32,000 nt of DNA from Candidatus Electrothrix yaqonensis (GCA_047651235.1 CP178758.1:3210001-3242000), one strand, 5' to 3'. Shown: positions 246 through 25,889, counted from the first letter of the stretch. The notes: generated by a model not told the origin, from the letters alone. Translations and numbers: made by a program.

Positions 246-1823
246 TCAGCTGTTTTTTTTTTCGCCTTTTTTCGAGGCAGACGGTTTTGTTTTGCGTTCT
301 TCCGGTTCCAAGGTGACCGGCAGGGAAGTTTCTTCTTCCGTTTTTGTTTCGGCCAGCGGTTCAGGGCGGACAGTCACGGTCTTTTTATCAGGAATGGTCA
401 CGGTTGCGTTGACGCTGCTGTATCCTTCTTTATCCGCAGAGACAGTGCAGGTCCCGGTATGCACTTTTAGGCGGAACGGGACATCCGGCGAGGCTATGCC
501 GGAGCTCGATACTTCATCGTTGCAGGCAACAGAGACTATCGTACTGTTCACCGTGGAGAGAATGGCAAGGGGATATGTTGCCTGAACGAGCTGCAGAAAC
601 AGTTCGCTGTCTCCGTTGATTGACACCTCTTTTTCCAGCAGGGCATATCCTTCTTTCTGCGCGGAAATATGGTGGGTGCCTATAGGCAGATTCAGGGTGA
701 GCTGCCGTTTTTCAGCAATATATTCTTTTTCATCCGCAATAACGGTCACATTGTCCGTATTCAATTGGATGGTTAATTCGGGCAGAGGCAGAACAGCCTT
801 CAGGGTGTAATTTCCGGTCAGATGAAAATCCTGTTGAAAAGGAGCGGCTGCCAGCGGGTTGGTGACTTTTACTGTATGGTTTCCTGCCGGTAAAGAGACG
901 GTGACCGGGGTTCCGGCAGTAGTTGTCCCGACCCGGCTGTCGTTGAGCAGGACGGTGCTCTGATCAAGGTTTGCATGGACGGTGAGCAGGCAGTCAGCAG
1001 GCTGCAGGCTGAACGGAAGGACCTGAAAGCTGTCGAGGATGATCTCTTTATCTGCAGGGAGATACCCTGATTTTTCCGCCCGTACGCGGTAGCGCCCGGC
1101 AGGCAGATTGAGGCTGAGGCGGTTACCGGGACTGCGGTATTCCTGTTCTCCTATGGAGATGCTGACATCCTGCACATTGAAGATAAGTTTTAGAACAGCC
1201 GGTTGGTCGCCATCGGAAAGCAGGGAGGGAGAGAGCAGAACGCCTGCGGCACAGGTAATGCACAGAGCGAACAACAGGCAGAAAGATTGAAGCGGAAAGC
1301 GGAAAGTTTTTTGCGGCCTCTCCCTGACATCCTTGACCTCTCTGACAGAGCGGGCAGTTTTTTTTTTCGGCTCAGCCGACCGGCTTTCCAGGCTCTCTAT
1401 TCTGCTGATGCAGTGCAGGTGCTGTTCGGCTGCCGGGCGCAGGCATTCCGGGCAGGAGGCCGGATCAGTCTGCTCAGCATGATCGGTACAGGACTCTGTC
1501 TGATGTCTGCAGGGCGGAAAAACGAGATCTTTTTCCGGAACAAGTCCGTCTTCCGGTGTATCCGGGACAAATTCGAGAAACTCACCCCGTTCCAGATAGA
1601 ATTTTTCCACCAAGGTCGAACAGCTCAGATTTTCCTCCGTATCCGCTGTTATCTCCGTGGTAACTATATATTTATAAGATTCTTTCTGCTCCATATGATG
1701 CGTATGACGATAGAGGGTATCCTGTGCTTTTCCCTCGTTGCATAATGCGTCAAGAACGGGTTGAAGCTGTTCGTCGGGAAAGCTGCTGCCCGGAGCTGAT
1801 TCAGCTGAAAAGAGATTCAACAT
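246..1823 (-). CDS. Membrane-anchored PEGA-domain repeat protein with a Cys-rich cytoplasmic N-terminus, one TM helix and 4-5 PEGA-like repeats
   Basis: 525-aa ORF. Hydrophobic segment FCLLFALCITCAAGVLL. Recurrent PEGA-type motifs: LPAGRYRVRAEKSGY, LPIGTHHISAQKEGY, HTGTCTVSADKEGY, LPAGNHTVKVTNP. Confidence 0.7.
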   Translation of the reverse strand: MLNLFSAESAPGSSFPDEQLQPVLDALCNEGKAQDTLYRHTHHMEQKESYKYIVTTEITADTEENLSCSTLVEKFYLERGEFLEFVPDTPEDGLVPEKDLVFPPCRHQTESCTDHAEQTDPASCPECLRPAAEQHLHCISRIESLESRSAEPKKKTARSVREVKDVRERPQKTFRFPLQSFCLLFALCITCAAGVLLSPSLLSDGDQPAVLKLIFNVQDVSISIGEQEYRSPGNRLSLNLPAGRYRVRAEKSGYLPADKEIILDSFQVLPFSLQPADCLLTVHANLDQSTVLLNDSRVGTTTAGTPVTVSLPAGNHTVKVTNPLAAAPFQQDFHLTGNYTLKAVLPLPELTIQLNTDNVTVIADEKEYIAEKRQLTLNLPIGTHHISAQKEGYALLEKEVSINGDSELFLQLVQATYPLAILSTVNSTIVSVACNDEVSSSGIASPDVPFRLKVHTGTCTVSADKEGYSSVNATVTIPDKKTVTVRPEPLAETKTEEETSLPVTLEPEERKTKPSASKKGEKKNS

Positions 1824-2049
1824 GACGGAAGTCCGACATTCAGTGTTGTGTCGGAGAAGTCAGAGATTTACGGTTGCTGCTGCGATGTCTGCTGTGGACT
1901 TCCAGCCAGTGTACAATGTTTTGATTTTTTCTGAAAGTATTATCAGCCGGATAATCCGAAGCGGAAACAGTCCTGACCAATCCCCCTGCAATCCGCTGCA
2001 GAACCGCCTTGTTCCTTCCCGTATCCTGTCATCACGTCACTATATCCCG

Positions 2050-3054
2050 TCACCATATCCGCCCGCCTGCATAGCCTCCGCCCCTGAGCTGCTCCTGCAC
2101 CATTTTGATTTCCGTATAATCGAGCGGATCAATCCAGCCCGCAATACCGGCCTCCTGCACGGCTCTGTGATCCGGCTGCAGGGATCTGAGCACAGCCGCG
2201 ACCTGATCGGCCAGCTTCTGATCGACAGATGCTGTTCTGGCCAGCGGAAATCCCGGATATAGCTGGAGCAACATAATTTGAATATGCCCACAAGAGGCAT
2301 AAGTTTTGCCTTCACGCCTTTCAGATAGCTGATCCTGTATTCAGTTTATACTGCTCCAGCTATACAGTTCCGTTGAGCAGACATAGGGGAAATCCGAATG
2401 GAATTTCTGTTGCAGAATTTTGAAATCCTCCATTTCTACGGTTCCTGCTGCTGCCATGCGCTCCAGGATACTGGCCGGTACAGTGCCTGCATCAACCCTC
2501 CGCTGCAGGACAGCGCCGACCACAGCCCAGGGCGTATCAAAAAAACGCAGGGTGTGGAGGAAAGGATACGGATCAATCCCGGCATCCCGGAACTCCTTTT
2601 CCGCCATCTGCCAGCCGCCAAAGGACCAGCGCCGCACTGCGCCGAATTTTTTGTTTTCCAGATCGCTCAGGTCATTGACAAGCCGGTTGTCTGCTGCGGT
2701 GAACAGCACGGCACCGATAGAATCGGTCTTAATCAATTTCATGGTCAGCACTTCCACTGCGCCGTGCTGCTCTTTGGCAGTTATGAAGACAGAGGGGTCA
2801 GCGGTAAAAAAATGCACCTTTTCCTGCTCCACGACCGGCAGGACATCCGGGAATTCCAACGGAAGAATGACCACGGGTCTGCCTAATTTTTCCGTAAGAT
2901 ATTCGCCGGTGGCCTCCCAGCGGTGCGTAAAGCCCAACGGCCCGGTCCAGGAGAGAATTCCTATCCGTATTTCTTCGGTTTTCTCCTCTGCAGCCTGACA
3001 GGGCGCAGTAAAGGCGAGCAGCAGAGCAAGTGCTGCCAGAAGTATTCCTTGCAT
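2050..3054 (-). pseudogene. PhnD/SsuA-like periplasmic substrate-binding protein gene, interrupted by a MITE (5' part 2341..3054, 3' part 2050..2257)
   Basis: Signal peptide MQGILLAALALLLAFTAPCQA and a PhnD-like body. ORFs 2341..3054 and 2050..2274 are in the same frame. Removing 105 bp (element plus one TA) joins ...CSTELY to PGFPLARTASVDQKLADQV... without a stop. Confidence 0.75.
2258..2364 (-). mobile_element. MITE copy A: 103-bp element at 2260..2362 flanked by TA/TA
   Basis: It is the exact reverse complement of 23372..23478, 107/107 nt on manual comparison. The 11-bp perfect terminal inverted repeat TAGCTGGAGCA extends imperfectly to about 25 bp. A TA dinucleotide sits on both flanks. 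Confidence 0.85.
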
Positions 3055-8809: not shown

Positions 8810-8886
8810 AGTTCTTTGCAGGAAAAGGGTATGGGTTTATGCTGCCCATTATCAGACCGTTTTTAGGGTGATATCATATTATGCGT

Positions 8887-8993
8887 TATTAACTGATGTT
8901 ACGTAGCCGAAACGCAAAATCGGCAGATTCCACGTTTTGGGTGTCTCGTTCCTTACTGATCTTTTATTTGCGTACGGTAACATCAGTTATTAA
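8887..8993. repeat. Roughly 107-bp intergenic element bounded by an imperfect 20-bp inverted repeat (MITE-like)
   Basis: Left arm TTATTAACTGATGTTACGTA (8887-8906). Right arm TACGGTAACATCAGTTATTAA (8973-8993). 13 nt (TAACTGATGTTAC) are perfectly complementary. Inner hairpin GCCGA-N9-TCGGC. Confidence 0.5.
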
Positions 8994-10634: not shown

Positions 10635-12254
10635 TTACCGACTTGGAAGAACGAGCCGGAAGCCAAGTCCTTGAAAGTGATCGTTTGGTTCGATCCCGTA
10701 CCGATCGGCGGCACGGCAACCATCACGAAAATTGAACCATGACCCGCTACGGGCAACCCGGCCACGGCCCGATGCAGGGCCAGTCGGATTATTATGTGGG
10801 CTGAACTTATAGTAATTGGAACTGTACCAATCAGCACACCATTCCCAAGCATTTCCGCTCATATCATACAGGCCGAAAGCGTTTTTCTTTTTCTGACCGA
10901 CCGGATGGGTTTTATTACCGCTATTTCCATCATACCAAGCTAATTCATTTATTCTGTCTCCACCGCAATACTTTCCAGAACCACCTGCTCGGCAAGCATA
11001 CTCCCATTCCGCTTCAGTGGGCAGGCGATATCTTTTGCCAGTTTCTCTGTTCAGCTCGGAAATGAATTCCTGTACATCTTCCCAAGATACGTTTCCAACA
11101 GGACACCTACCACTCGCTTTAAAGTTCGACGGATTATGAGTCATAATTTTCTTCCACTCCCTCTGGGTGACTTCATATTTCCCCATCCAGAATCCGTCTA
11201 CACAAACCTCATGCACCGGTCCTTCATCCTCCTTACGGTCTTTTTCATCCGGTGGGGAGCCCATTTGAAAACAGCCCTTGGGAATATAGACAAACTCCAT
11301 ACCGGTAATAGTGTCGGTCATGGTATCTCCCCGTTTCGGTGGGGATGGGGGGACAGGTTCCGGTTCTTCTTGCGGGTAAGTTTGTGCAGTATCTCCCCGT
11401 GGGGTAAAATTGCTTCCTGTAGACTTTTTCGTGCGCATACTGACAGGATTTCCACCCTGCATTTTTTGGGGCACCAGCAAGAAATCACCCCAATTATGAT
11501 TGGTCATCTTGATAACTCCGTACAAAGGTGTCTGCAGGGCATTGGCAATGACAGGATTTTTGATCCGGTCGAAGAGGCTGTCACCGTCCAGAACTTCCTG
11601 GTTGTGCCTCAGCACCCTAAGGAACGCTTGAGCAAAAACCGAATGCCCGCCTCCGCCGGAATCCAGAACCGGTTCTTCGCCCCCAGCAGTCAAGGCATTA
11701 CGAGACCGACGCGCCAGCATCCTCTGGATCCACTCATCTCGACTCATACCAGAAGCGAGTCTTACCTTTGGATTACGCATCAGCAGATTGCCGGAATAGC
11801 AGGAGTCCGCCACGACCAATACGTGTTTCGCCCGAATTACCCTGAGCAGACTGGTCACCCTGGAGGTTGGAATCCAGTCAACATCGTTGTCCCGTTCCGC
11901 ATCCACGGGCTGCCAGTAGCCGACACCGCTCAGGCGATCAAGATAGCCGTGTCCGGCATAGTAGATGAGCAGGTTGTCCTGTTCACTGGTCATTGTGCTA
12001 CGCAGTTTGGAAATAGCCCGCATGATCTGCTCTCTGTTGCCGTCCAGCAGCAGATCAACCTCAAAGCCGTACCATTTTTTCAGCACTTTGGCCACCGCCT
12101 TTGCATCCGCTCTGGGTGTCTTTAGCGGCTTGAGATATTTGTAGTTCTGGTTACCGATCACCAAGGCATGAAAACGCCCATAGGGAGATGCAGCCTGCAC
12201 CGGAGCAGCGGCAGACAGAAAAAACAGCAGGAAGAACAGCGGATTTCTGAGCAT
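10635..12254 (-). CDS. Secreted caspase-like (peptidase C14) / formylglycine-generating-enzyme-type sulfatase-modifying (FGE/SUMF1) domain fusion protein
   Basis: Signal peptide MLRNPLFFLLFFLSAAAPVQA. Caspase dyad motifs LLIYYAGHGY (His codon 11949-11951) and VVADSCYSG (Cys codon 11799-11801). FGE-domain motifs in the C-terminal half: YRLPTEAEWEYACRAG, GLYDMSGNAWEWC, RVARSGSW, GFRLV. Confidence 0.85.
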   Translation of the reverse strand: MLRNPLFFLLFFLSAAAPVQAASPYGRFHALVIGNQNYKYLKPLKTPRADAKAVAKVLKKWYGFEVDLLLDGNREQIMRAISKLRSTMTSEQDNLLIYYAGHGYLDRLSGVGYWQPVDAERDNDVDWIPTSRVTSLLRVIRAKHVLVVADSCYSGNLLMRNPKVRLASGMSRDEWIQRMLARRSRNALTAGGEEPVLDSGGGGHSVFAQAFLRVLRHNQEVLDGDSLFDRIKNPVIANALQTPLYGVIKMTNHNWGDFLLVPQKMQGGNPVSMRTKKSTGSNFTPRGDTAQTYPQEEPEPVPPSPPKRGDTMTDTITGMEFVYIPKGCFQMGSPPDEKDRKEDEGPVHEVCVDGFWMGKYEVTQREWKKIMTHNPSNFKASGRCPVGNVSWEDVQEFISELNRETGKRYRLPTEAEWEYACRAGGSGKYCGGDRINELAWYDGNSGNKTHPVGQKKKNAFGLYDMSGNAWEWCADWYSSNYYKFSPHNNPTGPASGRGRVARSGSWFNFRDGCRAADRYGIEPNDHFQGLGFRLVLPSR

Positions 12255-13026: not shown

Positions 13027-13042
13027 CCCCCGTTGCCGGGGG
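13027..13042 (-). repeat. REP-like GC hairpin, copy 1 (reverse orientation)
   Basis: CCCCCG-TTGC-CGGGGG. The reverse complement of 13024-13058 shares TTCAACGCAGTCGCCCC(C)CGGCAACGGGGGC with 16268-16300. Confidence 0.6.
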
Positions 13043-13698
13043 GCGACTGCGTTGAAAATCCCGGCATATGCCGCCTTATCCCAATGCCCCGATGGCCGGA
13101 CTTTTTATTGACTGTTCTCGGAATCTGTTGTATAGACAGGCAAAATCTTTTTCGTTTTTTCACTGTAACCTATCTTCAGCAAACAGAAATCAGGATGCGC
13201 ATCTTCTCAGGATACTGAGTATTCCGTCTGACAGAGCCGCCCGGGTCGGGCGCGCTGACGGCAGCTGCATCTGCTCTTCCGCCCTTCTGAACTCCCCCTC
13301 CATCGGGTTTCATTACTGCAACGATCCGGAAGCCGGATGCCCTGCCGATTCAGGCTTTGGCTGAACATTTTCGGATTTTTGCAGGATGAAACTCTTGTTT
13401 CGTTTCCATCATATTTTCGGCTGGTACGGGCTGCCCGTCTCTGCTGACAGAATTTCCAGCAGTAGAGGGAGATAGGTATGTCAGCTAATACGGTACTGCG
13501 CCGGATCTATCATGCCGTCCGTCTGCTGATCAGCGCCTGTTTCTCTCTGCAGGCTGGAGCAAGCATCTATCTGTGTTGGTACAGATATAAACTTGCGGTC
13601 GCTCTGCGCGGCCTGCAGTTTATCTGTTTTTTTCAATCTATCGTCTTCCCGACCTTATCGGGAGGAAAAAGAGTAATTTTCAGACAAAGGAGAACATT

Positions 13699-14297: not shown

Positions 14298-14782
14298 CAT
14301 TCCTCCCTTATTTTTCTTTACAGCCTGCCCTGCGTACTGAAACGGATGATTCTTTACGTTTATACCTCCTGCAAAAAGAACATTATGATTGTATAGTAGG
14401 TTATAAACCTGACTTTGTCAATCAACTTGGGCAGACGGAACAAACCGGGGAAGAGGCAGGGTGCACAGACAGATTAACGATAAAAAACAATATGATAAAT
14501 TAACAAGAAAAAGTATACCATAACCAGATTTTCAGTGTACGGAACACGGTGCGATTCCGTGGCACTCCCGGTGCTGTAACCCCTGTTGTTCTATCCTTCG
14601 GCATGTACAGGCCACTGTTCCTTGACCAGGAACGGGAAGGCCGCTGCAAGGGAGGGGAAGCCAGAAGACGAACTGAACATCTCTGTATTGCGGAGCGCGA
14701 TGGCAAAGGGTTCCGGAGAGCAATTGCTCTGCCGGGCCCTTTCTGTTTCGGCAGGGCAAAAGGAACCAGAGGAGGTTCATGC

Positions 14783-16244
14783 ATGAAAACGCAACTTGAA
14801 GCAGCCCGTGCAGGCGTCATGACCGAACAGATCAGAACCGTTGCCCGCAACGAAGGCTTGGACCTAGTGCTCAGTCATAGCTAAATTTTAGGATTGATAT
14901 CTCCAAATAAGATACGAATATTAAACGAGTGCGATATGTTCAACCCTAAATTTTAGGCTTTACAAAGCACTAGAGCTTGTGCAGCGCCGGGTGGCAGCCG
15001 GGGAAATCGTTATTCTCAGCCATCCGCAACGACCAAACCAACAGGCAGTGGGGATCGGGACTGGTCTGCGCACCAAGGTGAATGCCTCCATCGGCACCTC
15101 ATCCGATATCTGCGACCCGGATATGGAGGTGCGCAAGGCAAAAATCGCCGAACAGGAAGGGGCTGACACCCTGATGGAACTCTCTGCAGCCGGGAACCTG
15201 AATACAGTCCGTCAAGCTGTCCTGGCTGCGGTCAATCTGCCGGTGGGTACTGTGCCGCTGTATCAGGCCTTCCGGGAAACAGCCCTGCAGCACGCTGATC
15301 CAGGCAGACTGGACCCTGAATACCTGTTTGACCTGATTGAGCAGCAGCTGGCCGATGGTGTCAGCTTTATGGCCATCCACTGCGGCATCAATCAATACAC
15401 AATTGAGCGCCTGCGGAAACAGGGTTACCGTTACGGCGGACTGGTGTCCAAGGGCGGCACCTTCATGGTGGCCTGGATGGACAGCAACGGTAAAGAGAAT
15501 CCTCTGTATGAGCAGTTTGACCGGGTCTGCGGTCTGATGAAAAAATACGATGCTGTCCTTTCTCTGGGCAACGGCATCCGGGCAGGGGCCATCCACGACA
15601 GCCATGACCGCGCTCAGATGGCTGAAATGGTCATCAACTGTGAACTGGCCGAGCTGGGGCGGGAAATGGGCTGCCAGATGATGGTGGAAGGACCGGGACA
15701 TGTTCCCTTGGACGAAATTGCCGCAAATATTCTGCTGGAAAAAAGAATGAGCGGCAATGCCCCGTATTACGTACTCGGTCCGCTCCCGCTGGACAGCGGC
15801 GCCGGATACGATCATATCACCGCAGCTATCGGCGCAGCAAATTCTTCCCGATACGGGGCAGACTTGGTCTGTTACATCACTCCGGCCGAGCATCTTGCCC
15901 TGCCTGATGAGGAGGATGTGCGCCAAGGTGTCCGGGCTGCCCGCCTGGCGGTCCGCATCGGTGACATTGCCAAATACCCTGATCGCCGGGAAAACGAAAA
16001 AGCTGCGGCTAAGGCCAGACGCGATATGCGCTGGGGTGATCTGGAGCAGCACCTCCTGTTTCCTGATATCGCTGATGCGATGCGCCGGGAAAGAATTCCT
16101 GAACACAAGGAGACCTGCACCATGTGCGGAGACTTCTGCGCCATGAAGCAGGGAGCTGCAGTCTTTGGCAAGGATATTGCCGGAGATAAATGCACGGAAG
16201 ATACGGAAAGCGGCAGCAAGCCGTGCGCAGGAGCATTTTCGTAA
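14783..16244 (+). pseudogene. thiC: Phosphomethylpyrimidine synthase ThiC (short anaerobe-type), interrupted by a 106-bp insertion
   Basis: AGGAGG RBS at 14770-14775 and ATG at 14783. The N-terminal reading MKTQLEAARAGVMTEQIRTVARNEGLD runs into a stop at 14882. The body (ORF 14979..16244) is ThiC-like and carries the C-terminal CTMCGDFC cluster motif. Deleting 106 bp (14864 to 14969) restores one 451-aa frame reading ...NEGLDLELVQRRVAAGEIV... Confidence 0.85.
14864..14969. mobile_element. MITE-like insertion inside thiC, including one copy of the duplicated CTAG (or TA)
   Basis: Termini CTAGTGCT...AGCACTAG. The subterminal motif CTAAATTTTAGG occurs near both ends. The core is AT-rich. CTAG is present at 14864-14867 and at 14970-14973. 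Confidence 0.7.
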
Positions 16245-16280
16245 GGTATCCCTTCTGAATATCAAACCTTTCAACGCAGT

Positions 16281-16300
16281 CGCCCCCGGCAACGGGGGCG
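16281..16300 (+). terminator. REP-like GC hairpin, copy 3; possible thiC terminator
   Basis: CGCCCCCG-GCAA-CGGGGGCG, 37 nt after the thiC stop. No U-tract follows, so it may be a REP element or stabiliser rather than an intrinsic terminator. Confidence 0.45.
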
Positions 16301-21296: not shown

Positions 21297-21782
21297 ATGG
21301 AAGAATTGAAAATTTTTGTTGAACTGCCGCAGGAAGTGGAAAAATGGCTGATTCAGAACGAGACCAGTTTGGCGCGGCTGCTGCGGCAGCAGGGTGTGGA
21401 GGTGCGGGAAAGCCAAGATGTGAATCCCTTCCGGCAGGAGGACGGCAATGCGACTGAACGGGATATGAAACTGGTTCTTACCGTGACCAGTGCTGCCGTT
21501 GTGATTGTTGCTCTTGGTGTTGTAGCTGACAATATCCTCAAGACAATGAATAAAAAGCCGGTGTTCAGTATTGTCCGACGAGAGCGGGTCGTGCGTGATG
21601 CAAAGGGCGAAGTGGTGTTCGGCAAAGATGGCGAAGCAATCCGTGAATTTGAAGAAATTCCGTTGCTGCTGGAGCCAAGGGCGCAGGATTCAACAATGGG
21701 TGTTCAGTTGCAACTAAACGATCCGAAAACGGGCGACAAGTTTTTGCTGCGTATCGGCTCTTCCCATCAGGAGATAAAGTAA
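21297..21782 (+). CDS. Small single-pass membrane protein, first gene of the caspase-STAND operon
   Basis: 161-aa ORF with a strong RBS AGGAGGG. One TM helix, LVLTVTSAAVVIVALGVVADNIL. The stop lies 3 nt before the next start. Confidence 0.6.
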   Translation: MEELKIFVELPQEVEKWLIQNETSLARLLRQQGVEVRESQDVNPFRQEDGNATERDMKLVLTVTSAAVVIVALGVVADNILKTMNKKPVFSIVRRERVVRDAKGEVVFGKDGEAIREFEEIPLLLEPRAQDSTMGVQLQLNDPKTGDKFLLRIGSSHQEIK

Positions 21783-21785
21783 GCT

Positions 21786-23390
21786 ATGGCGTTTCGGGCC
21801 TTTGTTGTTGGGGCAAATTATGTTGATCTGAAATACGCTGAAAAAGATGCGCAGCGTATTGCCGATAGACTGCATGAACTTGCTTACGTACTTCCCGAAC
21901 CTCGGGTTCCTCCGCTTGGAGAGGATAAGAAAGCTATCCGTGAACGATTCGAAAAAGTTGCTTTTGACTGTAACCCGGAAGATACGCTGCTGTTTTATTT
22001 TGCCGGACATGGGCTGATTCACGAAGGTATACTTTGTTTGGTGCTTGATGGTTATGATCCATCTGCCAATCCGCTTCAGACCTGCTTGAACTTCAACGAT
22101 ATCAGCACAATCTTTCAAGGTGTTAGAGCAGCAGCTAAATTGGTTGTTCTTGACTGCTGCCATGCCGGAAAATCCTTTTCCCGTGTTGATTTCAATTTTT
22201 CCGATAACTATACAGTCCTTACTGCTTCAGAGTCTTTTAAAAAAGCGTTAGAGCTTAAAGACCACAAAGCCGGTTTCCTCAGCCACCACCTGCATAACGC
22301 CTTGACCGATGATCTGGAACAGGTTTCCCGTAACAGGCATGTCCTGCTGGGAAAGGTGCATCGTTATCTGAGGGAGAAGGTTCAAGAGCATAACCGCACC
22401 GCAGAACCATCTGACCGGGTTCCTGAAATCACCGATCTCTCAAAGCAGACAAAAGAAATCGTTCTGGCAGAGATCCCGGAAGATATGTCGCTGAAACCAA
22501 TCTACGGTCTTCAGCGCATCAACCATGCCTTTCTTGCTGCTCAAAAGGATAAAACCGGCCCGGAGTTCATCCCGGCAAATTTTTACGGAGCCATTCCAAA
22601 TGTGCAATGGTGGGGCGTTACCAATGATCTTGTATCTGAACAGAGCCTTTATCCTGCTGTGGAGGAGCATGTTCGGCAGGCGGTTAACGGCTATTTCCCG
22701 CTGATCGGAATTATTTACGGCAGCGGCGGCATGGGCAAGTCCATTCTTCTGCGCCGTCTTGGGGTGGCCTTGGCGGAGGAGTTTGATGTCTGGTGGCTGG
22801 AAGACACGGAGGAACTGCTCAAAGACAGAAAGGCTGCCGAGGAAAAGCTGCTGGAGTCCGGCAGGCCGCAGATTGTTCTCCTGGATGACTGGACAGCCTT
22901 GGAAGAGGATGCCCGTAAGGAATTGCGGACTTGGTTCAACCAGCTCAACAAGAGCGGCGACAGCAAGCAGCTCAAATTTGTTCTTACTGGTCGCAGTTGG
23001 AGCAACAGAGACTTATCAAAAAAGCTCATTTCTTCCGGTGGGCTGTTCGAGATGGACAAACAAAGTAATCTTGGTCAGGATAATCCTCTGCTTCTGGACA
23101 AAGCTGCCGAGGTTTTAAATGATCCTGAATGGCATGCCGCCGCCCAAGAGCTGCGTTCCACCAATCTAGCGCAGACCAAACCTTTTCATCTTCTCTTCGT
23201 CTTCATGCGGCTGGCACCGGAGAGCCTGCGGGAAAAGATCGCCAAAGGACAAGATGTAGCCTATATTTTTTCGGAGATCATTGAAAGCGATCTGGAAAGA
23301 CTGTGGCAGGATGAACACAGAAAAGGGCTGGCCGCCGCAGTCAGCACGATGGCATGGCTACACGTACAGTTTATAGCTGGAGCAGTATAA
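21786..23390 (+). CDS. N-terminal part of the split caspase-like / P-loop STAND NTPase / repeat protein
   Basis: Caspase dyad motifs LLFYFAGHG (His codon 22008-22010) and VVLDCCHAG (Cys codon 22158-22160). Walker A GSGGMGKS (22719-22742). Walker B IVLLDDW (22872-22892). The last 5 codons and the stop come from the MITE. Confidence 0.85.
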   Translation: MAFRAFVVGANYVDLKYAEKDAQRIADRLHELAYVLPEPRVPPLGEDKKAIRERFEKVAFDCNPEDTLLFYFAGHGLIHEGILCLVLDGYDPSANPLQTCLNFNDISTIFQGVRAAAKLVVLDCCHAGKSFSRVDFNFSDNYTVLTASESFKKALELKDHKAGFLSHHLHNALTDDLEQVSRNRHVLLGKVHRYLREKVQEHNRTAEPSDRVPEITDLSKQTKEIVLAEIPEDMSLKPIYGLQRINHAFLAAQKDKTGPEFIPANFYGAIPNVQWWGVTNDLVSEQSLYPAVEEHVRQAVNGYFPLIGIIYGSGGMGKSILLRRLGVALAEEFDVWWLEDTEELLKDRKAAEEKLLESGRPQIVLLDDWTALEEDARKELRTWFNQLNKSGDSKQLKFVLTGRSWSNRDLSKKLISSGGLFEMDKQSNLGQDNPLLLDKAAEVLNDPEWHAAAQELRSTNLAQTKPFHLLFVFMRLAPESLREKIAKGQDVAYIFSEIIESDLERLWQDEHRKGLAAAVSTMAWLHVQFIAGAV

Positions 23391-23478
23391 ACTGAATACA
23401 GGATCAGCTATCTGAAAGGCGTGAAGGCAAAACTTATGCCTCTTGTGGGCATATTCAAATTATGTTGCTCCAGCTATA
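23372..23478 (+). mobile_element. MITE copy B: 103-bp element at 23374..23476 flanked by TA/TA
   Basis: Identical to the reverse complement of 2258..2364. Removing 105 bp gives the continuous reading ...AWLHVQF-SPYFYFTKNALRN... Confidence 0.85.
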
Positions 23479-25889
23479 GTCCGTATTTTTATTTCACCAA
23501 AAATGCCCTGCGAAACCTAGTAGCCTACCGCAATCCGGACTATCCACTTCCACCATCCACAGATTGGGGAATTCCGCTGAAATATTATTTGTATGCCTAC
23601 CAAAATCCGACAAACAAGCGGGAGGATGCGGAAGAATATGTTGCCTTCATTAAAGACGACTTTGCTAAAAAGTTGTCTGAGGCGGACAGTTTCAGAGATT
23701 CCCCTTATGCGGAAAACTTCTGGCTGACTGATGCGGAGTTCATTATTCGGAAAGCGGATGTGTATTCCTCATCCATGCTGCTATACAGCATCTGCCAAAA
23801 GATGCTCAGTGAAGATCTCCCGAAAGACTGGACAGAGACGCAGATGAAGGCGATGATTCTTGCCCAACTTGAGCGGGACAACGGCCATCATGCCTATGCC
23901 TGGCTACTGCTGCAAGATGGCATCTTTACCGATGAAGCGGAACGCTGGGAGCTGATTGAGCTATATCTTGCCCTTGCGCCGAAGAATGTTCGGTTTGTAG
24001 TGCCGTTTTTGAAATGGGGAAAGAAGGCTGCGCTGAAACGGACTCGGTCTGTTGCCAAGAGTCTGCTGGAGGTGGAGGGGCAAGTTGCGGATGTCATCTG
24101 CACTGCTCTGAATTTTCTGGACAGAGACGAAGCCAAGCTGTTTGCCAAAGAGCTGCTGGATAAGGATGGGCAGGTTGCGGATGTCATCTGCGTAGCTCTG
24201 AATCTTCTGGACAGAGACGAAGCCAAGCTGTTTGCCAAAGAGCTGCTGGACGTGGAGGGGCAACATCCGTTTGTCATCTGCACTGCTCTGAATCTTTTGG
24301 ATCGTGAAGAAGCCAAGTCCTTTGCCAGAAAACTGTTGCTGGAGGAAAAAAGGCAGGAGCATCAAATTATCTGCACCGTGCTGAATCTGAATCTTTTGGA
24401 TCGTGAAGAAGCCAAGCCTTTTGCCAAAGAGCTGCTGGATAAGGATGGGCAGGTTGCGGATGTCATCTGCGTAGCTCTGAATCTTCTGGACAGAGACGAA
24501 GCCAAGCTGTTTGCCAAAGAGCTGCTGGACGTGGAGGGGCAACATCCGTTTGTCATCTGCACTGCTCTGAATCTTCTGGACAGAGACGAAGCCAAGCTGT
24601 TTGCCAAAGAGCTGCTGGAGGTGGAGGGGCAAGTTGCGGATGTCATCTGCACAGCTCTGAAGCTTTTGGACAGAGATGAAGCCAAAACTTTTGCCAGAAA
24701 GCTGCTGGACGTGGAGGGGCAACATCCGTTTGTCATCTGCACTGCTCTGAATATCCTGAACAAGGAGGAAGCCAGCCCCTTCGCCAGAAAACTATTGCTG
24801 GAGGAAAAAAGGCAGGAGCAGGAAATCATTTGCACCGTGCTGAATCTGAATCTTTTGGATCGTGAAGAAGCCAAGCCTTTTGCCAAAGAGCTGCTGGACG
24901 TGGAGGGGCAACATCCGTTTGTCATCTGCACTGCTCTGAATATCCTGAACAAGGAGGAAGCCAGCCCCTTTGCCAGAAAACTATTGCTGGAGGAAAAAAG
25001 GCAGGAGCAGGAAATCATTTGCACTGTACTGAATCTGAATCTTCTGGATAGTGAAGAAGCCAAACCTTTTGCCAGAAAACTGCTGGAGGTGGAGGGGCAA
25101 GTTGCGGATGTCATCTGCACAGCTCTGAAGCTTTTGGACAGAGACAAAGCCAAGCCTTTTGCCAGAAAGCTGTTGCTGGAGGAAAAAAGGCAGGAGCAGG
25201 AAATCATTTGCACCGTGCTGAATCTGAATCTTCTGGACCAAGAAGAAGCCAAGCCCTTTGCTTGGAAGCTGATTAAGGAGCCGAACCAGACGATGCAATT
25301 ACGCTGCGCCGCATTGCATGTTCTCGGCAAAGAAGCAGCGGATTACGCTGCACGGGTTCTGGACAACTGGAAAAAGGAGCCGTTCAATGTTGTGCTGCGC
25401 AGTCTCAACATTCTGCCGAAGGACAAAAAGACAGCAGAAATTATCACCTCATTGCTGAAACGCAAGAGGAAAACACATGAATACTTCAGGGTACTCGCTT
25501 TCCCCTTTCCTGCCGTTGCAGCATGGCAGCAGGAGGTTGAGAATATCGTCCGCAATTGGAAGTATAAGAATCGCAGAGCAGTTGCATCCGTGCTACCGCA
25601 TTATTTTGAGGATCCATATTTCCTGAAACAACCCTGTTTTGAAATTCTTGGCTGGTGGAAGCGCGATATAGAATACCAACGCAGAAAATTCCCTCAAAGT
25701 ATCTGCACAGATCATATCCTCATCGCCCTCGGCCATCCCCATCTCCGCGCCCCGGCAGGCCGAGTTGCCGCCGGAATGCTGCTGGATGAAAAAGAGCATC
25801 CCGGCTTTCTCGGCGAAAAGCTGCTTCAGGCCGCAGAGGACATTGTCAATGACGGCATATATCCTGATTGGGAAAACGAAGAAAACTGA
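23421..25889 (+). CDS. C-terminal part of the split caspase-STAND protein: helical linker plus tandem 30/33-aa repeats. Native coding resumes at 23477; the first 19 codons come from the MITE.
   Basis: It is in the same frame as 21786..23390. The GTG (23421) and ATG (23436) starts lie inside the MITE. There are 13 near-identical repeats and at least 2 degenerate ones. Confidence 0.8.
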   Translation: MKAKLMPLVGIFKLCCSSYSPYFYFTKNALRNLVAYRNPDYPLPPSTDWGIPLKYYLYAYQNPTNKREDAEEYVAFIKDDFAKKLSEADSFRDSPYAENFWLTDAEFIIRKADVYSSSMLLYSICQKMLSEDLPKDWTETQMKAMILAQLERDNGHHAYAWLLLQDGIFTDEAERWELIELYLALAPKNVRFVVPFLKWGKKAALKRTRSVAKSLLEVEGQVADVICTALNFLDRDEAKLFAKELLDKDGQVADVICVALNLLDRDEAKLFAKELLDVEGQHPFVICTALNLLDREEAKSFARKLLLEEKRQEHQIICTVLNLNLLDREEAKPFAKELLDKDGQVADVICVALNLLDRDEAKLFAKELLDVEGQHPFVICTALNLLDRDEAKLFAKELLEVEGQVADVICTALKLLDRDEAKTFARKLLDVEGQHPFVICTALNILNKEEASPFARKLLLEEKRQEQEIICTVLNLNLLDREEAKPFAKELLDVEGQHPFVICTALNILNKEEASPFARKLLLEEKRQEQEIICTVLNLNLLDSEEAKPFARKLLEVEGQVADVICTALKLLDRDKAKPFARKLLLEEKRQEQEIICTVLNLNLLDQEEAKPFAWKLIKEPNQTMQLRCAALHVLGKEAADYAARVLDNWKKEPFNVVLRSLNILPKDKKTAEIITSLLKRKRKTHEYFRVLAFPFPAVAAWQQEVENIVRNWKYKNRRAVASVLPHYFEDPYFLKQPCFEILGWWKRDIEYQRRKFPQSICTDHILIALGHPHLRAPAGRVAAGMLLDEKEHPGFLGEKLLQAAEDIVNDGIYPDWENEEN
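24054..25259 (+). repeat. In-frame tandem repeat array of 13 units (nine of 90 bp, four of 99 bp)
   Basis: Unit consensus: A(K/R)(E/K)LL-x8-(V/I)IC(T/V)(A/V)LN(LN)LLDR(D/E)EAK(L/P)F. A 156-bp block at 24141-24296 is identical to 24420-24575. The block at about 24708-24860 recurs at about 24897-25050 with a few SNPs. Confidence 0.9.

Follow-up and report, generated by a model that had tools for sequence, protein, structure and literature searches.

An inserted element divides a caspase-STAND gene

We examined a 32,000-nucleotide stretch of the genome of Candidatus (Ca.) Electrothrix yaqonensis (GCA_047651235.1, CP178758.1:3210001-3242000), referred to throughout as the window and used for all coordinates unless a contig is named, in which a gene encoding a caspase-STAND protein is divided into two open reading frames (ORFs) by a 103-bp miniature inverted-repeat transposable element (MITE), here named MITE-A. 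The host is a marine cable bacterium of the genus Ca. Electrothrix, and proteins encoded in the window have cluster mates (90% identity or above) in Ca. Electrothrix aestuarii, E. scaldis, E. sp. GW3-4 and AUS4.

The 5′ fragment of the caspase-STAND gene (21786-23390, plus strand) encodes 529 native residues followed by five that are read from the element (IAGAV) and a TAA stop, the frame from the ATG at 21786 running ...LHVQF-IAGAV-TAA with the stop at 23388-23390. Beyond the element lies the 3′ fragment (23479-25889, plus strand), which encodes a helical region and tandem repeats of about 30-33 aa. The element and its target duplication together amount to 105 bp, which leaves the 5′ and 3′ fragments in a common frame, and the next long ORF, at 23421-25889, shares its frame with the ORF that starts at 21786. 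When the element and one TA (105 bp) are taken out, the two parts form one 1332-aa ORF with the sequence ...HVQFSPYFYF... at the junction; the insertion point is codon 530 and the reconstructed empty site is ...CACGTACAGTTTAGTCCGTATTT....

The element in the caspase-STAND gene (MITE-A copy 2, 23374-23476, plus strand) has a G+C content of 42% compared with 51% for the window and is flanked by the two copies of its duplicated TA target, read directly from the sequence at 23372-23373 on the left and 23477-23478 on the right. Its left tip, TAGCTGGAGCA (23374-23384), recurs as an exact reverse complement at 23466-23476, giving perfect repeats of 11 bp. Repeat searches and comparison of the two ends extend these to imperfect terminal inverted repeats of 25 nt, the left being TAGCTGGAGCAGTATAAACTGAATA (23374-23398, plus strand) and the right, given as its reverse complement, TAGCTGGAGCAACATAATTTGAATA (23452-23476, minus strand), with agreement at 21 of 25 positions, and an inverted-repeat search that included the flanks returned arms of 34 nt with 79% complementarity. 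The window contains the 11-mer tip, at up to one mismatch, in five places where 0.51 would be expected; none of 100 shuffles gave as many, and two of the five matches (2260, 2362) bound another copy of the element, MITE-A copy 1, which is described below. A preliminary description of the locus, made from its sequence, had proposed a 103-bp element at these coordinates with 11-bp perfect repeats extending imperfectly to about 25 bp, a TA on both sides, a TAA stop five codons in and a caspase-STAND reading frame that is restored on removal of the element with one TA, all of which was borne out.

MITE-A cannot encode a protein, since each of its six frames contains a stop codon, and any insertion of the element into a coding region therefore truncates that region. 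As a single strand it is predicted to form a long hairpin (-39.1 kcal/mol). An Rfam scan of the element matched no family. Scanning for promoters and terminators revealed nothing promoter-like in or near it and a single terminator-like hairpin, a weak one of the minus strand.

The caspase-STAND protein carries a Peptidase_C14 domain at residues 4-139 (Pfam E-value 1e-9) and an nSTAND_NTPase5 domain at residues 274-410, the latter scoring 35.7 bits against a curated cut-off of 34, and in the alignment of its homologues His75, Cys124/125, the Walker A motif GSGGMGKS and the LLDDW motif are invariant. It resembles the nSTAND caspases in that a Peptidase_C14 domain with the His/Cys dyad forms its N terminus, a P-loop nSTAND_NTPase5 domain its centre and a repeat array its C terminus. 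Judging from this domain architecture the gene may have an immune or suicide role, for which the Avs-type antiphage STAND proteins provide a functional analogy; PADLOC gave a weak match to a generic caspase model only, covering part of the profile (E = 1.5e-8), with no assignment to a defence system. Directly upstream, and ending 4 nt before the caspase ATG, is an ORF of 161 aa with one hydrophobic segment and no Pfam match (21297-21782, plus strand). The same two-gene arrangement is found at a Ca. Electronema locus, where the partner protein is 62% identical, which points to the 161-aa ORF and the caspase-STAND gene being a conserved two-gene unit. PADLOC gave no match to either the C-terminal half of the caspase-STAND protein or the 161-aa partner.

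A protein search identified eight homologues of the caspase-STAND protein, from Ca. Electronema, a Desulfobacteraceae metagenome-assembled genome (MAG) and metagenomes, which are 53-60% identical, continuous across the insertion site and without the 35 extra codons. Orthologues in which the 105 bp was conserved as coding sequence would have spoken for a native segment, and all eight were free of it. Aligned at the DNA level, the Ca. Electronema homologue was too divergent to be informative on the empty site, and the comparison was made with protein alignments; the empty-site evidence consists of homologues from other species together with restoration of the frame, not of a same-species empty site.

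Two further features of the region concern the caspase genes. In the 3′ part of the caspase-STAND gene, coding repeats of 90/99 bp that are nearly identical to one another (...VICTALNLLDRDEAKLFAKELL...) form a long array (23960-25340), of which the homologues have fewer units, and this array probably also breaks short-read assemblies. A second caspase-domain gene, with Peptidase_C14 and FGE-sulfatase domains, lies 10 kb away at 10635-12254 on the minus strand and appears intact.

An identical copy divides a periplasmic binding-protein gene

The second copy of the element, MITE-A copy 1, lies on the opposite strand at 2260-2362 (2258-2364 with both TA flanks, minus strand), 21 kb from the copy in the caspase-STAND gene, to which it is identical at 103 of 103 bp and, with the TA flanks included, at 100% over 107 bp. 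It divides a gene for a Phosphonate-bd periplasmic binding protein into a 5′ fragment (2365-3054, minus strand), whose called ORF stops at 2341 inside the element, and a 3′ fragment (2050-2259, minus strand), and removal of 105 bp joins the two into a 299-aa ORF with Pfam coverage rising from positions 1-186 to 1-237 of the 242-position profile. Relative to its host gene copy 1 has the same orientation as copy 2 has relative to the caspase gene; it is read in a different frame, as ...STELY-SWSSIN-TGA.

Only the removal of 105 bp, not of 103 bp, makes the caspase-STAND and binding-protein genes continuous again, and Pfam coverage then extends across the two junctions. Since it takes 105 bp to restore both, the target duplication is the 2-bp TA and not TATA.

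The inverted pair formed by the two copies extends about 10-12 nt past the element in a search of the find_repeats type, and 6 of the 10 flank bases beside the TA match; we treat this likeness of the two sites as chance or a weak target preference. A 146-aa ORF without a Pfam match (1822-2262, plus strand) runs antisense to the 3′ binding-protein fragment and ends at the TAG of the MITE end, and is probably spurious.

Both insertions are present in independent short reads. Wherever they were compared, the Logan short-read contigs of run SRR31704081 showed no difference from the window, and one of them ends at 2280 and another at 2339, each holding unique flank, the TA and 21 or 24 nt of copy 1 from opposite sides. 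A third ends at 23399 and carries the 534-aa truncated caspase gene with 26 nt of copy 2 (left side). Because these contigs hold flank, TA and 21-26 nt of the element, the insertion junctions are real in independent reads. The contig breaks at MITE-A are the expected behaviour of a k-mer assembler at a repeat.

Relationship of MITE-A to IS630-family elements

In order to place the element we used a relaxed end pattern with 17 specified bases, TATAGCTGGAGCANNATAA, which gave 48 (genomes), 66 and 4 matches, mostly chance and without a partner repeat; matches were therefore used only where there was extended similarity or a TA-flanked partner end. Among the 48 matches in genomes, seven came from cable bacteria or Desulfobulbaceae, namely Ca. 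Electronema sp. PJ (three), JM and JC, one Ca. Electrothrix MAG and one Desulfobulbaceae MAG. Each of the seven marks the end of an inverted-repeat element, 136-314 bp long and flanked by TA; these elements share their tips and differ in their interiors.

Metagenome contigs supplied complete elements with transposase genes. Contig L089 holds a TA-flanked element of 886 bp encoding HTH_Tnp_IS630 (E = 3.7e-17) and DDE_3 (E = 1.1e-32) domains, and one of its ends, TAGCTGGAGCACAATAAACTGACTA, matches the left arm of MITE-A at 22 of 25 positions. A second such element, with a transposase 66% identical, is found on L114, where it abuts another MITE end. On L055, a contig from sediment, a 103-bp MITE of the same length as MITE-A, and homologous to it at both ends, has landed at a TA within a gene for an IS630 transposase (657-763, 763-988 of that contig).

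The L089 transposase has 1613 relatives at E <= 1e-10, those with names being designated IS630 family transposases by NCBI (Nitrosomonas, Symbiopectobacterium, Serratia symbiotica). To avoid circularity five of these relatives were fetched via the protein alone, and all five lie in TA-flanked elements with ends of the type TAGC..(A/G)GCA..ATAAA.TGA; three were scored, matching the MITE-A arms at 16-20 of 25 positions, and the other two were compared by eye. Overall, 10 ends of eight IS630-family elements match MITE-A at 16-22 of 25 positions, with two further elements compared by eye. In a contig of Ca. Electronema sp. JC the 3′ end of an IS630-type transposase gene is followed by ...TAGTCAATTTATTGTGCTACGGCTA and then TA, and on account of this transposase end and repeat end we take the short IS630 subgroup to be present in cable bacteria.

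These comparisons agree with the earlier proposal of an IS630/Tc1-mariner-type insertion, which the TA duplication and the match to the ends of elements encoding HTH_Tnp_IS630 and DDE_3 both uphold. The element also proved to be a non-autonomous miniature element as suggested, being noncoding, bounded by terminal inverted repeats, flanked by a duplicated 2-bp TA and present in two or more identical copies. The preliminary description would have been weakened by a lack of other copies and of any related insertion sequence in the genome; a second copy was found, and related insertion sequences exist in related genomes.

The transposase genes themselves differ at one site. At the conserved ...SISRKK... 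a run of seven A gives one ORF of 274 aa and a run of eight A gives separate HTH and DDE ORFs. The site lies at position 396 of L089, position 534 of L114 (both on the reverse-complement strand) and position 36 of L120, and was also compared in L118, L119, L129 and a second copy in L120; a single complete Nitrosomonas genome contains both states. This difference could be a slippage-based control of the transposase or simple decay.

Origin and consequences of the insertions

Taking the observations jointly, we consider it very probable that MITE-A is an IS630-type MITE which, moved in trans, recently truncated the caspase-STAND gene and, as an identical copy, the binding-protein gene. A short insertion sequence of the IS630 family, about 890 bp long with a transposase of about 274 aa (HTH_Tnp_IS630 and DDE_3), would be either the ancestor of MITE-A or the element that it parasitises. 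An IS630-type transposase supplied in trans would recognise the terminal repeats of about 25 bp and move MITE-A by cut-and-paste to a TA dinucleotide, which would thereby be duplicated. The behaviour of the IS630 family and the kinship of the ends both point to such mobilisation in trans, and as MITE-A encodes nothing it could only be a passenger of a transposase of this type. Both insertions appear to be recent because the two copies are 100% identical and the host genes are otherwise intact.

Each host gene is truncated by MITE-A. Translation of the caspase-STAND gene would end five codons into the element with loss of about 800 C-terminal residues, that is the helical region and the repeat array, which together would form the sensor. 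In STAND proteins a helical region and repeat array make up the sensing and regulatory part, and since both are removed the likeliest outcome is loss of regulated caspase-STAND function, the gene being most probably inactivated.

A number of points weigh against this account. Loss of function is something that we infer from the truncated frame. The exact 25-nt end pattern, TAGCTGGAGCANNATAANNTGAATA, had no match in genome_contigs or metagenome_contigs, neither of which holds the source genome, and six-frame peptides of MITE-A compared with the protein database gave 12 word-sharing candidates, none of which scored. The best 120 of the 1613 transposase matches include no protein of the source contig (3,738,687 bp) and none from SRR31704081, the two Logan-only matches to the L089 transposase having come from other runs; no transposase was found in the window and about 15 kb of extra flank. 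The same roughly 47 kb contains two MITE-A copies only. The breaks in the short-read contigs were rejected as proof of a high copy number, as two copies already break k-mer assembly. Finally, pairwise alignments of the restored junction with the homologues show a 2-residue indel a few residues downstream and are otherwise collinear.

Other explanations of the locus start from the same features. The caspase-STAND gene might be a working split gene, its caspase-NTPase half made from the original start and its repeat-rich half by re-initiation at an ATG at 23436 (or a GTG at 23421), with the halves acting together or the free caspase-NTPase half acting unregulated. Both start codons lie in frame inside MITE-A, the ATG 8 nt downstream of GAAGG, the 105 bp keeps the downstream part in frame and the 3′ part contains no further stop or frameshift. 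An intact 3′ part is, however, equally expected after any very recent insertion, and as copy 1 is read in a different frame the arrangement of the ATG and Shine-Dalgarno-like sequence is no general property of the insertions. With no promoter-like site found in or near the element, and with all eight homologues being single polypeptides across the site, we regard a working split gene as quite improbable. A reversible switch would have precise excision restore the caspase-STAND gene in a subpopulation, making a costly suicide or defence gene phase-variable. The perfect ORF obtained by removing the element with one TA would suit this, as would the identical copies, which suggest that the MITE-A family is or recently was mobile, but every short-read contig extending to either site runs into the element and none shows an empty-site allele (such contigs do not capture allele frequencies), and the best 120 transposase matches include none from this genome. 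Bacterial IS630-family elements are not known for precise excision, and a switch of this kind appears very improbable.

The ends of the element can also be read differently, as a 99-bp IS5-like element of the form GCTGG...CCAGC lying between two copies of a 4-bp TATA duplication, with the TA being coincidental. This reading is available at both copies and implies an empty site ...TTTATAGTCC... in which TATA is retained. Its removal would take out 99+4 = 103 bp, which shifts the frame in both genes, whereas removal of 105 bp restores both, and it is the 25-nt ends starting with TAGC after the TA that match the ends of IS630-family elements; membership of another family such as this was rejected on the frame shifts and has a negligible probability. 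We give hardly any weight to an assembly or sequencing artefact, or a native conserved coding sequence, for which no supporting point was found. The junctions are present on independent short-read contigs, the segment is absent from the homologues and contains an in-frame stop, and an identical copy sits in an unrelated gene. An IS630-type MITE inserted at TA remains the reading that we adopt below.

Comparison with known miniature elements

MITE-A is a previously undescribed, apparently recently mobile member of a well-known kind of element and is comparable to the RUP/IS630-Spn1 pair. With the short IS630 subgroup (about 0.9 kb, transposase of about 274-282 aa), which we take to be the size class of ISY100 and IS630-Spn1, it shares the TA duplication and ends that read TAGC..AGCA..ATAAA.TGA directly after the TA. 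Unlike members of that subgroup, which encode a transposase with HTH_Tnp_IS630 and DDE_3 domains, MITE-A encodes nothing and is one ninth the size.

The RUP element of Streptococcus pneumoniae is 107 bp long, inserts at TA, has stops in six frames and carries terminal inverted repeats that resemble those of the short IS630-family element IS630-Spn1 (PMC2229807), and MITE-A is like it in its length of 103 bp, TA flanks, stops in six frames and IS630-like ends. The high identity of RUP copies was read as recent mobility and its frequent insertion into the transposase genes of insertion sequences was noted (PMC2229807), the latter having a counterpart in the 103-bp homologue nested in the IS630 transposase gene of L055. 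In contrast to RUP, which was reported to be intergenic (PMC2229807), both MITE-A copies lie inside protein-coding genes, and the host is a cable bacterium of the Desulfobulbaceae and not a streptococcus; the two elements are likened by description, not by sequence. Also by description, MITE-A resembles the Correia/NEMIS elements of Neisseria, which are about 107-155 bp long with long terminal inverted repeats, TA termini and a target duplication and occur within and between genes. Correia elements have no established transposase partner and carry motifs such as an IHF site, promoters and RNase III sites. Two papers on closed cable-bacterium genomes report more than 100 insertion sequences per genome, with counts of at least 120, and leave MITEs unmentioned, one of them setting repeats at >250 bp.

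Implications for annotation and other miniature elements in the window

For annotation, the ORFs at 21786-23390 and 23421-25889 are best treated as one gene broken by a mobile element and flagged as a pseudogene, and the binding-protein gene at 2050-3054 is likewise broken and merits the same flag. MITEs with the tip TAGCTGGAGCA across Electrothrix and Electronema are a cause of broken assemblies and disrupted genes that has gone unlisted until now. The insertion of MITE-A is an ordinary kind of gene disruption, useful for annotation and not surprising, and would gain biological weight only if the loss or splitting of the caspase-STAND gene alters cell-death or defence behaviour in the filaments.

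Within the 32 kb of the window there are four miniature inverted-repeat insertions from three families, three of them inside genes. It seems rather unlikely that they record an ongoing multi-family MITE burst eroding genes in a clonal multicellular filament lineage, or that the caspase-STAND gene functions in two pieces by way of the stop, ribosome-binding site and restart codon of the element. If such a burst were true, the caspase-STAND gene among the eroded genes could govern programmed cell death or phage defence in filaments.

Besides the two MITE-A copies, a 102-bp MITE-like element at 14868-14969 (14864-14973 with its flanks) has CTAG on both sides and terminal repeats (TGCTCAGTCATAGCTAAATTTTAGG...) that match imperfectly over about 30 bp. 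The gene that it interrupts (14783-16244) is of the ThiC_Rad_SAM type, and removal of 106 bp joins the ATG at 14783 to the ORF at 14979-16244, with Pfam coverage going from positions 30-417 to 1-417 of 420. A short-read contig begins at 14944, inside this element. A cobalamin riboswitch (14516-14691, 73 bits) lies directly upstream of the interrupted ThiC-family gene, which suggests a putative role in the synthesis of the cobalamin lower ligand (BzaA/B-like) rather than of thiamine.

A further MITE-like element of 108 bp (8886-8993) has 17-bp terminal repeats, TTATTAACTGATGTTAC, and is intergenic, lying between xseA and a gene for a glucose/sorbosone dehydrogenase; judging by its length, one of the short-read contigs breaks off within this element near 8934. 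Lastly, a 30-nt G+C-rich inverted pair at 13028-13057 and 16269-16298, 83% complementary and 3.2 kb apart, brackets the region containing the rhodanese gene, the riboswitch and the ThiC-family gene.

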